NCBI GenBank assembly: GCA_964016885.1
Contig: OZ024743.1
Location: forward strand, 206,398,001-206,462,000
Reading direction: 5' to 3'
DNA from: Eledone cirrhosa
Lineage: Eukaryota
DNA: 64,000 nucleotides
The notes under the pieces were generated by a model, which had not been told where the DNA came from, ran no database searches, and worked only from the letters and a program-made list of their open reading frames with translations. The position numbers and the translations under genes were made by a program. Every line of letters starts with the position of its first letter. Within the stretch, counting starts at the first letter, position 1. Of this stretch, positions 53,285 through 59,575 are shown one piece after another.

Positions 53285-53373
53285 ATTCTCGACAAAAGCA
53301 AGGGAAGTAATCTACGCGTTTCATTCTTATTAGAAATCTTCAGGACTACATATCCAGTGCTTTTATCGAGAAT
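53285..53373 (-). ncRNA. Type I hammerhead ribozyme, intact catalytic core
   Basis: Minus strand reads GTAGTC-CTGAAGA-T TTCT AATA AGAA T-GAA-ACGCGT-A-GATTAC (53349-53307). Stem I is extended by a 16-bp helix (53285-53300 with 53358-53373). Both G-U wobbles work only on the minus strand. Predicted cleavage between 53313 and 53312. Confidence 0.88.
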
Positions 53374-53594
53374 GACACAGCTAGAGACTTATAGAATACT
53401 TAGCTGTGTACAGGAACTGGTTTGAAAGAGCGGTTGCCGGTCCGGCAGAAATTAGAAATTGGAATAAATGCTCTGAAATAGCGATATATATGTGAATATA
53501 GACATAGAATATTCAAACATATTCTGTATGTTTATAATAAACATTTTGAAGACCTAATCGCTATAGAATAGAATATGTCACGTATTACAATTAG

Positions 53595-53683
53595 ATTCTC
53601 GACAAAAGCAAGGGAAGTAATCTGCGCGTTTCATTCTTATTAGAAATCTTCAGGACTACATATCCAGTGCTTTTATCGAGAAT
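53595..53683 (-). ncRNA. Second hammerhead copy with a U16.1>C change (probably impaired)
   Basis: Same as 53285-53373 except A>G at 53624 (plus strand), converting the GUA cleavage triplet to GCA. Confidence 0.8.
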
Positions 53684-54009
53684 GACACAGCTAGAGACTT
53701 ATAGAATACTTAGCTGTGTACAGGAACTGGTTTGAAAGAGCGGTTGCCGGTCCGGCAGAAATTAGAAATTGGAATAAATGCTCTGAAATAGCGATATATA
53801 TGTGAATATAGACATAGAATATTCGAACATATTCTGTATGTTTATAATAAACATTTTGAAGACCTAATCGCTATAGAATAGAATACGTCACGTATTACAA
53901 TTAGATTCTCGACAAAAGCAAGGGAAGTATTCTATAGCGATTAGGTCTTCAAAATGTTTATTATAAACATACAGAATATGTTTGAATATTCTATGTCTAT
54001 GCATATTCT

Positions 54010-55473
54010 ATGTGGCGGAACTCACTGGATGCTGGATATGTGCCAGAAAACCTTCTATCCCAGTCTGTTGTCCCAGTTTTCAAAAAGGGAAACAAATCCC
54101 TTGCCGTGAATTACCGTCCAATCTCACTCACCTCTCATATCATTAAGGTATTTGAGAGAGTGGTGAGATCGCGAATGACCCACTTCCTTGAGAGTAACAA
54201 TATGCTGAACTCCAACCAGCATGGATTCCGTAATGGAAGGGATTGCCTGACGCAGCTACTGCATCACTTTGATGACATTTTGAGAGCCTTGGGAGAGGGT
54301 TCCAACACTGATGTTATCTACCTTGATTTCAGCAAGGCCTTTGACAGGGTTGATCATAACATTCTACTGAGAAAGCTGTCCAATATTGGTGTCACTGGAA
54401 AGCTGCTGCAGTGGATCAAGAGCTTCCTGTCAAACAGAACCCAACATGTTGTAGTTGAGGGAGTCAAATCCAGCCCAGCGAAAGTCAGTAGTGGGGTCCC
54501 ACAAGGCACTGTGTTGGGCCCACTTCTCTTCATCATCTATATTAATGACATCACTGACATCATCAAACACAGCAACATTAAAATTTTCGCTGATGATTCC
54601 AAGCTCCAAAAGGTCATCAATGGCGTGGATGACCGGATAAGCCTTCAGTCAGACCTACTGGCTGTTACCCAATGGGCGGAAAAGAACAACATGTTACTGA
54701 ACGAAGACAAATTCGAACTGATCCACTTTGGAAAAGAGGATGCTCTGAAACTCCCGTACTCCCTTCCCTCCGGGGAAACTCTCGTGGCACCTAACAACAT
54801 CAGAGACTTGGAAGTAACCGTGGACAGCAACATAAGCTGGACCACGCATATAAGCAGCAAAGTTGACATGGCCCGCAGAATGTGTTCCTGGATCCTCAGA
54901 ACCTTCCAGTCGAGAGATTCCCGCACCATTATCCTTCTCTTCTCTACTTTTGCCCGACCACACCTTGAATACTGTTGTCCACTGTGGTCTCCCCACACGA
55001 AACAAAGTATCATGAAACTTGAAGCTCCTCAAAGGGCAATCACGAAAAAGATAGATGGCATGTCAGACCTTGACAACTGGGGTCGATTAGAAAACCTGAA
55101 ACTTTACTCACTCCAACGTCGCCGTGAGCGTTATATTATCTGCATGATGTGGAAAATGTTCCATCATCACTGCCCAAATGATGTTGGCATCGCCTTCAAG
55201 ATACACCCAAGGCTTGGGCCCCGTGCTATCCGTCCCATTCAAAAATCTAAATCGCAACTCATAACAACAATACGGCACAATTATTTCACCTCAATCGGCC
55301 CTGCTCTCTTCAACATCACACCAGGACACGTCAAAACAGAAACTGACCACACAAAATTCAAGAAGTCTTTGGACAAATTCCTCCAAGTAATCCCGGACAA
55401 ACCACCCACACCCGGATATGTCTCCGCAAACAGTAATTCTCTTCTCGAATGGGCCATGGTGCCCAAATCCTGA
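54010..55473 (+). CDS. Reverse transcriptase + C-terminal region of a CR1/L2-group ORF2 (5'-truncated, open frame)
   Basis: [55 protein letters not shown]. No APE domain is present. Confidence 0.88.
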   Translation: MWRNSLDAGYVPENLLSQSVVPVFKKGNKSLAVNYRPISLTSHIIKVFERVVRSRMTHFLESNNMLNSNQHGFRNGRDCLTQLLHHFDDILRALGEGSNTDVIYLDFSKAFDRVDHNILLRKLSNIGVTGKLLQWIKSFLSNRTQHVVVEGVKSSPAKVSSGVPQGTVLGPLLFIIYINDITDIIKHSNIKIFADDSKLQKVINGVDDRISLQSDLLAVTQWAEKNNMLLNEDKFELIHFGKEDALKLPYSLPSGETLVAPNNIRDLEVTVDSNISWTTHISSKVDMARRMCSWILRTFQSRDSRTIILLFSTFARPHLEYCCPLWSPHTKQSIMKLEAPQRAITKKIDGMSDLDNWGRLENLKLYSLQRRRERYIICMMWKMFHHHCPNDVGIAFKIHPRLGPRAIRPIQKSKSQLITTIRHNYFTSIGPALFNITPGHVKTETDHTKFKKSLDKFLQVIPDKPPTPGYVSANSNSLLEWAMVPKS

Positions 55474-55564: not shown

Positions 55565-55826
55565 TACATACATATATACATACATATATATATATACATA
55601 CATATATACATACATTTATATATATACATACATATATACATACATATATATACATACATACATACATATACATACATACATACATATACATACATACATA
55701 CATATATATACATACATACATACATATATATACATACATACATACATATATATATATATATACATACATATATATATATACATACATACATATATACATA
55801 CATACATATATATATATACATACATA

Positions 55827-55858
<32 letters not shown>

Positions 55859-55862
55859 CATA

Positions 55863-55908
<46 letters not shown>

Positions 55909-56193
55909 CATACATACATATATATACATACATACATACATACATATATATACATACATACATACATACATACATATACATACATACATACATATATATA
56001 TATACATACATACATACATATATATATATACATACATACATATATATATATACATACATACATATATATATATACATACATACATACATATATATATATA
56101 CATACATACATACATACATATATATACATACATACATACATATATATATATACATACATACATACATACATATACATACATACATACATACAT

Positions 56194-56226
<33 letters not shown>

Positions 56227-57985
56227 CATACATACATACATATATATATATACATACATATATATATATACATACATATATATATATATATACATACATA
56301 CATATATATATATACATACATACATATATACACATACATACATACATATATATATATACATACATACATATATATATATACATACATACATATATATATA
56401 TACATACATACATACATATATATATATACATACATACATATATATATATACATACATACATATATATATATACATACATACATACATATATATATATACA
56501 TACATATATATATATACATACATACATACATATATATACATACATACATACATATATATATATACATACATACATACATATATATATATACATACATATA
56601 TATATACATACATATATATATATATACATACATATATATATATATATACATACATATATATATATACATACATACATATATATATATACATACATATATA
56701 TATATACATACATATATATATATATATACATACATATATATATATACATACATATATATATATACATATATATATACATACACATATATATATATACATA
56801 TATATATACATACACATATATATATACATACATATATATATATACATACATATATATATATATATATATACATATATATATACATACACATATATATATA
56901 CATACATACATATATACATACATACATATATACATACATACATATATACATACATACATATATACATACATACATATATACATACATACATACATATATA
57001 TATACATACATATATATATACATACATATATACATACATATATATATACATACATATATACATACATATATACATACATACATACATACATATATATATA
57101 CATACATATATATATATACATACATATATATATATACATACATATATATATATACATACATACATATATATATACATACATATATATATACATACATATA
57201 TATATACATACATATATATATACATACATATATATATACATACATATATATATACATACATATATATATACATACATATATATATACATACATATATATA
57301 TACATACATATATATATACATACATATATATATACATACATACATATATACATACATACATATATACATACATACATATATACATACATATATACATACA
57401 TATATATATACATATATATATATACATATATATATACATATATATATACATATATATATACATATATATATACACATATATATACATATATATATACACA
57501 TATATATATACATATATATATACATACATATATATACATATATATATACATATATATATACATATATATATACATATATATATACATATATATATACACA
57601 TATATATATACATATATATATACATATATATATACATACATATATACATACATATATACATATATATATACATACATATATACATACATATATACATACA
57701 TATATACATACATATATACATACATATATACATACATACATATATACATACATATATATATATACATATATATATACATACATATATATATACATACATA
57801 TATATATATACATACATATATATATACATACATATATATATATACATACATATATATATATACATACATATATATATACATACATACATACATATATATA
57901 TATACATACATATATATATACATACATACATACATATATATATATACATACATATATATATATACATACATATATATATACATAC

Positions 57986-58024
<39 letters not shown>

Positions 58025-58083
58025 CATATATATATATATACATATATATATACATATATATATATATATACATATATATATAC

Positions 58084-58114
<31 letters not shown>

Positions 58115-58363
58115 CATATATATATATACATATATATATATACATATATATATATATACATATATATATATACATACATATATATACATATATATATATA
58201 TACATATATATATATACATATATATATATACATATATATATATATACATATATATACATATATATATACATATATATACATATATATATATACATATATA
58301 TATATACATATATATATATACATATATATATACATATATATATATATACATATATATATATAC

Positions 58364-58410
<47 letters not shown>

Positions 58411-59151
58411 CATATATATATATACATATATATATATATACATATATATATATACATATATATATATATACATACATACATATATATATATACATATAAA
58501 CATACATATATATATATACATATATACATACATATATATATATACATATAAACATACATATATATATATACATATAAACATACATATATATACATATAAA
58601 CATACATATATATACATATAAACATACATATATATATATATACATATATATATATACATATAAACATACATATATATATATATACATATAAACATACATA
58701 TATATATATATACATATAAACATACATATATATATATACATATAAACATACATATATATATATATATACATATAAACATACATATATATATATACATATA
58801 AACATATATATATATGCATACATATATATATATATATACATATAAACATACATATATATATATACATATAAACATATATATATATGCATACATATATATA
58901 TATATATATACATATAAACATATATATATATGCATACATATATATATATACATATAAACATATATATATATGCATACATATATATATATATATATATATA
59001 CATAAACATATATATATATATATATATACATAAACATATATATATATGCATACACATATATATATACATACATATATATGCATACACATATATATATACA
59101 TACATATATATGCATATATATATATATATATACATACATATATACATATAT
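55565..59151. repeat. (TA)n/(TACA)n compound microsatellite with TAAACA and TGCA sub-blocks
   Basis: Direct reading. Confidence 0.98.
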
Positions 59152-59198
59152 ATTCCTGATGATTTCTAAAGAATGAAACAGTTCTAGTCCTGTAGAAT
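59152..59198 (+). ncRNA. Type I hammerhead ribozyme candidate in a ~125-bp island
   Basis: ATTC-CTGATGA-T TTC TAAA GAA T-GAA-ACAG TTCTAGTC CTGT-A-GAAT. The core is canonical and stem III is near-palindromic. Predicted cleavage after 59194. Confidence 0.72.
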
Positions 59199-59575
59199 CT
59201 CATCTATATTAAAAATGTTATACTCTGCAATGTGGTTACTTACTGTGGTTACCTCCGATTCAACCCGGAATAACGTACTATATATACATATATATATATA
59301 TATACACATACATATGTATATATATACACGATATTAACAAATGGAAACTATATTTATAAAACCATATTTATTTCATTATACCTATTTCAAGGATTCCAAG
59401 TTAAATTATGGTATGCCTTCATCAGACAAAATACAATATATACCAGTTTTTATAAATAAAATAAATAATGGATGTATACATAAAATCGTCTCTCTTCTTT
59501 ATATATATATATATAAAGAAGATATATATATATATATATATATTTGTGTTTGTTATGAAGTGTCCTATTATTAAA

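Follow-up and report, generated by a model that had tools for sequence, protein, structure and literature searches.

Head-to-head hammerhead arrays in (TA)n microsatellites of Eledone cirrhosa carry two paired outer ends

The window, a 64,000-nt stretch of Eledone cirrhosa contig OZ024743.1, contains a 310-bp tandem array that spans positions 53174/83 to 53929-53934 and lies between a (TA)n tract and a LINE. Positions on the monomer are numbered from the first base past the predicted hammerhead cut. The insertion target on the left side is a (TA)n/(TACA) microsatellite (52674-53182). It adjoins arm A (53174-53929, minus strand), which is ~750 nt or 2.4 units long; its 3′ (priming) end is at a site that we call S1 (here monomer 130-139, within an AT tract; 53174-53183), its 5′ end is at monomer position 4, and two cut sites are crossed on the way. 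Arm B (53928-54000, plus strand), a 73-bp remnant of a second arm covering monomer 53-125, stands head-to-head with arm A. The two share a TA microhomology at 53928-53929, and 6 of 7 positions match over 53928-53934. Ten nucleotides of filler follow (54001-54010, plus strand), and 54003-54013 repeats arm B monomer 111-121. The native sequence of a young, 5′-truncated LINE, which we take to be CR1-like, begins at 54011 and runs to 55567 on the plus strand, with an open reverse transcriptase (RT) frame of ~490 codons; it occupies the place of the outer end of arm B. A (TA)n microsatellite (55568-59153) forms the right side.

The coordinates given in the original prediction for the array, its 53929 edge, the cut-equivalent position at that edge (53933/53932), the 53928-54000 piece and the TA overlap were all borne out, as was the placement of the left end of the array in the monomer's AT tract against (TA)n. 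The 73-bp piece had also been described as an inverted copy of the array's other end. An inverted partner it is, but it matches the middle unit of arm A at 73/73 positions and the outer units at 72/73, and is not a copy of the other end. The 5′ edge of arm A is ambiguous: after a mismatch at 53930 the match resumes over 53931-53934, spanning the cut-equivalent site, and the edge may therefore lie on either side of the cut. A second copy of the family in the window is a lone 97-bp arm (47105-47201, minus strand; monomer 69-165) with its outer end, at a site called S2, in (TA)n; its 5′ side adjoins non-TA sequence.

The unit is non-coding, with an AT content of 52-77% per 31-nt bin. An intact type I hammerhead motif lies at 53307-53349 (minus strand; predicted cut at 53313/53312, GUA), and a second one at 53617-53659 (minus strand) carries a GUA to GCA change at 53624 and is likely inactive; the genome contains this GCA form 6 times in all. 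We recognised the motif by its pattern and through manual inspection; an Rfam scan of the sequence returned no match at the gathering score. The predicted parts are stem I (6 bp), CUGAAGA, stem II (4 bp, over a U.U pair), GAAA, stem III (2 bp, palindrome ACGCGU) and GUA, and they agree with the canonical metazoan hammerhead as described in the accessible text of PMC4209133. The core (CUGANGA/GAAA/UA) is nearly invariant across ~940 units. Variants at the 13 core positions make up 0/38 of the locus-fixed and 9/178 of the private changes, a difference that is not significant and in which 3 of the 9 come from one misaligned locus; selection on the ribozyme core may be suggested by these counts, short of significance. 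A 16-bp inverted repeat (monomer 13-28 with 250-265; 53285-53300 and 53358-53373 in the window) extends stem I of the ribozyme, and one junction elsewhere (L194) uses this repeat as a 17-nt microhomology. The unit is also present in contigs of four runs, which as contigs cannot show expression or circularity. Being a dispersed, multicopy tandem unit with a type I hammerhead, the element would qualify as a non-LTR retrozyme.

Exact matches to the unit number at least 18,137 genome-wide. Exact junctions of (TA)n with S1 (position ~139) number 1178 and those with position 165 (S2) number 973, and the reversed controls of both searches gave 0. We sampled 173 regions: 33 loci taken from the 150 matches listed of 263 DNA-search matches, 80 regions corresponding to 82 consecutive listed S1 places, and a replication set of 60 consecutive further S1 places of 341. 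With the window and three duplicate junctions left out, 150 head-to-head junctions were available (97 discovery, 53 replication). Head-to-head arrays were present at 148/173 loci overall, at 28/33 of the DNA-search picks and at 120/140 of those picked by a (TA)n end; the remaining loci are mostly single arms with TA-rich sequence to either side (seen for 15 of 20 such 5′ flanks). We conclude that the locus is one of over a thousand insertions of the family, mostly head-to-head.

The outer ends of the two arms are paired in a fixed manner. Among the 150 junctions, 132 combine one S1 with one S2 end, 14 have one arm running beyond the sampled DNA, and 4 are complex, so that the S1+S2 combination, ending in (TA)n, is found in 132/136 fully seen pairs. 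S1+S1 or S2+S2 pairs number 0 among the 150, of which 122 had been chosen by their S1 end and could not show S2+S2; the 28 junctions not selected by an end comprise 24 S1+S2, 2 cut off and 2 other. S1 falls at ~130-139 and S2 at ~151-173, mostly 165-172, with 82 of 132 at exactly 165. The interval between them forms a tail of ~26-42 nt at one of the insertion's ends. TA sequence flanks 182 of the 188 outer ends that are not cut off and 126 of 133 S2 ends. Having (TA)n on either side would mask any target-site duplication. With an inverted 5′-truncated copy, a one-sided tail and a microsatellite target, the insertions bear the marks seen in Penelope-like elements (PLEs). An insertion of Penelope type, made into (TA)n and accompanied by an inverted partner, had been proposed at the outset, with inversions and TA flanks expected to be common; both are indeed enriched, and the pairing is stricter than proposed. 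This family-wide rule is the result of value, and the original prediction was half right.

Both arms are typically multi-unit (median ~1 kb, up to 5.9 kb). Their lengths are uncorrelated and lie at least 310 nt apart in 95/136 pairs. Reading through the cut site is seen in 280/300 arms, and through two or more cut sites in 239/300, which means that no cleaved linear monomer served as template. The inner junctions are scattered along the monomer and show short microhomology or filler: an overlap of at least 2 nt was found at 55% of 71 insert-free joins vs 18% by chance, and filler at 37/150. At one of them (L059, 3756-3810), 55 nt of unrelated sequence was captured. The two inner ends of an insertion are slightly closer on the monomer than expected by chance (68.6 vs 76.2 nt, p=0.018). 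A closer match, with a mean of 57 nt in the first 28 junctions, was rejected, the mean being 77 nt in the next 69. A bias of inner ends to positions 1-155 was likewise set aside: it is significant in the pooled data (179 vs 150), absent from the replication set, and tracks AT content.

Judged at diagnostic sites, one haplotype extends across both arms at 131/132 loci vs 13% upon permutation. There are 46 haplotypes among 151 loci, and 202 variants are fixed in both arms vs 1 fixed in one arm only. Of these 202 variants, 27 are private to one locus, yet present in all units of both arms, and this requires a one-monomer bottleneck. Such a bottleneck would be a better indirect footprint of the ribozyme than the position of an edge. 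Variants confined to one unit number 179 and those spread over several units of one arm 12, and the arrays were therefore likely born long. At 4 loci, this one among them, a unit-specific variant is present in both arms, which points either to some templates exceeding a single monomer in length or to gene conversion. The longest arms (L058, L079, L100, L175, L189 and L216) have variants recurring every 4-8 units, a pattern that suggests later block duplication.

The 310-bp unit is too small for an RT + GIY-YIG ORF, and the adjacent RT frame belongs to the separate LINE, with no GIY-YIG match. ORFs with both domains do occur in the genome. A search for an autonomous PLE ending in this unit had been suggested as a check; among 10,596 first-look candidates, of which 150 were listed, 35 GIY-YIG loci were examined, and none shared sequence with the unit. 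The 3′ ends of 19 GIY-YIG/RT frames bore no significant likeness to the unit; three local-alignment scores slightly above those of 30 shuffles, on AT-rich text, were not counted as homology. Seven hammerhead variants with another stem III, considered as a partner, all proved to be changed units of the same 310-bp family. The Penelope-type reading is also backed by the genome's own RT+GIY-YIG elements, which have the same two-end anatomy, with one short and one long end in 3/3 head-to-head pairs seen (L248, L106, L122). Two sister hammerhead families share this pairing of a short end and a long end (L174, L191, L258; L228).

Several other observations were made on these elements. At L248 (3400-6570), PLE 3′ halves with 402-aa frames stand head-to-head around a near-perfect palindrome, with one short and one long end. 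An abundant RT+GIY-YIG family (L242, L243, L247, L251, L252, L254; frames up to 938 aa) ends in (TA)n ~220 nt past the stop, and no canonical hammerhead was found downstream of these frames. A sister hammerhead family (L228, 2428-2871; L242, 41-205) has a 3′ region 72-79% like monomer 31-165 and equivalent end sites, pointing to what may be a conserved recognition element. In the window itself, a single arm of a sister hammerhead family with a longer stem III lies at 59155-59280 between (TA)n tracts; elsewhere this family forms short head-to-head pairs with ends ~25 and 89 nt past the cut. Finally, at L049 (5178-6625) a 75-nt second arm runs into an inverted piece and a PLE 3′ end, in which a zinc finger, GIY-YIG, a hammerhead and the tail are followed by (TA)n; this may reflect either a jump between PLE and retrozyme RNA templates in one event or a later insertion.

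In animal non-LTR retrozymes circles have been demonstrated, and tandem cDNA made from circles has been proposed (Cervera and de la Pena 2020, PMC7229834, as far as its accessible text goes). Li et al. (2026, 10.64898/2026.07.22.740005) use co-occurrence and likeness to pLTRs to connect retrozymes with PLEs, and the life cycle proposed in the accessible text of these two works has a circular-RNA template and a PLE helper. Co-occurrence, sequence likeness and the proposed life cycle thus form the prior basis for retrozyme circles being moved by PLE enzymes. As in the animal non-LTR retrozymes described there, the unit studied here is a low-GC, non-coding tandem repeat of ~300 bp, each copy with a type I hammerhead, in arrays from dimers to long multimers. 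Here, unlike in those retrozymes, most insertions consist of two head-to-head arrays whose outer ends are paired and lie in (TA)n at two fixed sites. Expression, circles and cleavage are documented in the accessible parts of PMC7229834 and 10.64898/2026.07.22.740005, whereas the present family is known from sequence alone. The word 'inverted' does not occur in the main text of PMC7229834, and the accessible part of Li et al. 2026 (10.64898/2026.07.22.740005) does not describe a two-array head-to-head arrangement.

EN+ PLEs share with these insertions an inverted 5′-truncated copy, microsatellite targets, a tail (30-40 bp in EN+ PLEs) that is often found at one end only, and hammerheads on opposite strands (accessible text of PMC8557442 and PMC3846280). 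Unlike them, the present family has no ORF, a tail of ~26-42 nt and two multi-unit arms, and a one-end tail that is optional in EN+ PLEs, according to the same texts, is a near-rule here. The available text of Craig et al. (2021, PMC8557442) describes the origin of the tandem and inverted PLE structures and of the one-sided tail as still undefined. The closest biochemical comparison is PAc, a Poseidon PLE of Anolis, which in vitro cuts and extends both strands and initiates reverse transcription at a pair of neighbouring internal positions, by which the tail is defined (Frangieh et al. 2024, PMC11167929). According to the accessible part of that paper the enzyme is a predicted dimer, ribozyme cleavage is not needed, and RNA-seq reads do not end at the ribozyme cut. 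Common to PAc and the present family are an AT-rich target and a pair of adjacent internal start sites downstream of the hammerhead. The PAc start sites are the same on both strands and not homologous to the cut DNA, as far as PMC11167929 could be consulted, whereas here each end has a start site of its own and the AT tract containing S1 matches the target. The strict S1+S2 pairing is not reproduced by PAc in vitro in that part of PMC11167929. In a literature survey that covered few subscription papers (older Penelope work included) and few supplements, we found no description of two-armed retrozyme arrays, strict start-site pairing or same-template arms.

The reading that we favour, with rather more confidence than doubt, is that a PLE RT/GIY-YIG dimer would have both ends of a (TA)n break primed at S1 and S2 of one RNA, probably a circle, and that the products would be joined by microhomology. 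The dimer would cut both strands of (TA)n, and the two DNA ends would serve as reverse transcription primers on a single RNA, S1 being the start for one of them and S2 for the other. Where this RNA is a circular monomer, both cDNAs would go round a variable number of times; their ends would anneal by 1-5 nt or via filler, and repair would complete the insert. The ribozyme would likely act upstream, in the release of monomers for ligation, and not in setting the 5′ edge. We infer the enzyme, the priming of both ends, the single template molecule, its circularity and this earlier role of the ribozyme from the arrangement of the insertions. A head-to-head inversion with a microhomology join also arises in L1 twin priming, in which two primers act on one RNA. 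Here, unlike in twin priming, both primers would be at fixed sites ~26-35 nt apart, both arms recopy the same sequence, and the second primer site shows no clustering of inner ends. The family is young, and its more than a thousand near-identical insertions make the rules countable: one S1 and one S2 end, one haplotype, many rounds and no stop at the cut. The pairing rules are directly testable in the existing in vitro PLE assay. Whether the two subunits differ is nearly an even call, leaning slightly against: in such an asymmetric two-enzyme reaction on one RNA, an S1 subunit and an S2 subunit would both roll independently round a ribozyme-derived circle. If this holds, the tail and the inverted repeat would form a single footprint in every EN+ PLE, and the arrays would provide the first in-genome record of a circular RNA undergoing two-ended rolling-circle retrotransposition.

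The agreement of the arms in haplotype is also compatible with a pair of RNAs made from a homogeneous source array, or with an uncut linear multimer. That two-ended Penelope priming used, in place of a ligated circle, a linear multimer transcribed from an existing array and left uncut is unlikely in our view. In the accessible text of PMC11167929, mutation of the ribozyme does not abolish insertion in vitro, and the main substrate is unprocessed RNA; moreover, the short palindromic stem III is of a type reported as poorly cleaving in monomer form, and at L096 and L105 a unit-specific variant, when units are counted from the priming end, holds an equal rank in the two arms. However, transcripts of aged arrays should pass on more unit-specific variants than the 4 shared ones seen beside 179 single-unit ones, and both the 27 locus-private variants fixed in all units of both arms and the number of haplotypes (46 for 151 loci) run against a multimeric source.

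A single primed cDNA might instead fold back and copy itself, with the endonuclease resolving the hairpin at the other site, as was hypothesised for rotifer PLEs in the accessible text of PMC3846280. The common haplotype of the arms would be explained directly, the inner ends are mildly correlated, and the autonomous PLE pair at L248 has a near-perfect central palindrome. Fold-back nonetheless appears rather improbable: the start of the shorter arm is spread round the monomer relative to the longer one (offset 0-77 in 48/136 pairs, 233-309 in 36), either end type may be the longer arm (S1 in 71/136), and the mirrored unit holds only 8 of 128 testable unit variants, a count that is weak evidence if most variants postdate insertion.

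The 53929 edge, 3 nt from the cut-equivalent site, had been taken as the footprint of a self-cleaved RNA, with RT running off the ribozyme-cut 5′ end and setting the inner edge; a peak of breakpoints at the cut site was expected. Among 300 inner (5′) ends from the 150 other insertions, 0 fall at positions 1-5 (4.8 expected), 2 at 1-10 (9.7 expected) and 8 at 301-10 (19.4 expected). There is no peak in the discovery or the replication junctions; the site is depleted in the former and at expectation in the latter. Of 5 exact genome-wide matches to an arm beginning at position 1, 2 proved to be internal jumps and 3 true starts, where ~10 true starts would be expected (13.9 ends per position, with a pattern that misses subfamilies differing at 1-19). 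An excess of ends at 11-25 (27 vs 14.5) could represent cut ends trimmed before joining. This shoulder was noticed only after looking, accounts for ~4% of ends at most and is not significant in the replication set alone (8 vs 5.1); it also coincides with the base of the 16-bp stem (13-28/250-265) in a folded circle and is therefore not specific evidence of cleavage. About 10 putative starts genome-wide at position 13 count in favour of run-off; the 35 matches of that pattern include 22 array variants. With no end peak at the cut and with arms that cross it, copying of the insertion from a ribozyme-cut linear RNA was rejected. Run-off is already refuted as a general rule, and we regard it as very improbable as an explanation of the family.

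At this locus, which does end at position 4, the proximity of an edge to a cut would arise by chance in 4.5% of cases counting two junction ends, or 9% counting four, and chance is its likely explanation; a single edge near a ribozyme site is poor proof of cleavage. With its ribozyme dead in one unit, the variant pattern of this copy is compatible with a dimer template that has its live site at the edge, and a rare CpG-type allele is common to arm B and the middle unit only (5 single-unit cases in 1480 units). This shared allele would be accounted for by gene conversion or by a dimer template that includes the dead ribozyme. No source locus for the dead-ribozyme haplotype was found among the 6 GCA sites genome-wide, the other five being without its remaining alleles. 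Under the dimer reading, run-off at the live cut site would have an outside chance for this one copy.

Movement of the arrays by the neighbouring LINE machinery, or their growth by DNA recombination within microsatellites, is hardly credible: a young LINE adjoins arm B, shares its orientation and has a (TA)n end as well, and a few long arms hold periodic duplicated variants, but a LINE stands at an arm end only at this locus of 151, such periodic variants number 12 vs 179 single-unit ones, and two fixed internal ends with an inverted partner are marks of PLEs.

Arm B stops 40 nt before the usual second-arm end (S2, ~165), and the missing 40 nt are absent on that strand elsewhere in the 64-kb window. 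The LINE, with its own (TA)n tail, stands where they would be expected, and arm B was likely shortened by it. It is 98.3-99.5% identical to 11 other copies and 0.5-0.7% from its nearest copies, while the array has 3.7 private changes per kb, the 3rd of 151 loci. A later LINE insertion with loss of target sequence is the simplest account of the locus. LINE and array may also have been joined by a template jump within a single event, since their ages overlap.

Elsewhere in the window, a 5′-truncated LINE of a different family (51180-52675; open RT frame of ~470 codons) is flanked by (TA)n tracts. Positions 24-29690 consist of ~29.6 kb of a 25-28-bp satellite with higher-order structure, and after the satellite 12.2 kb of (TA)n-type microsatellite extends over 29971-42171.
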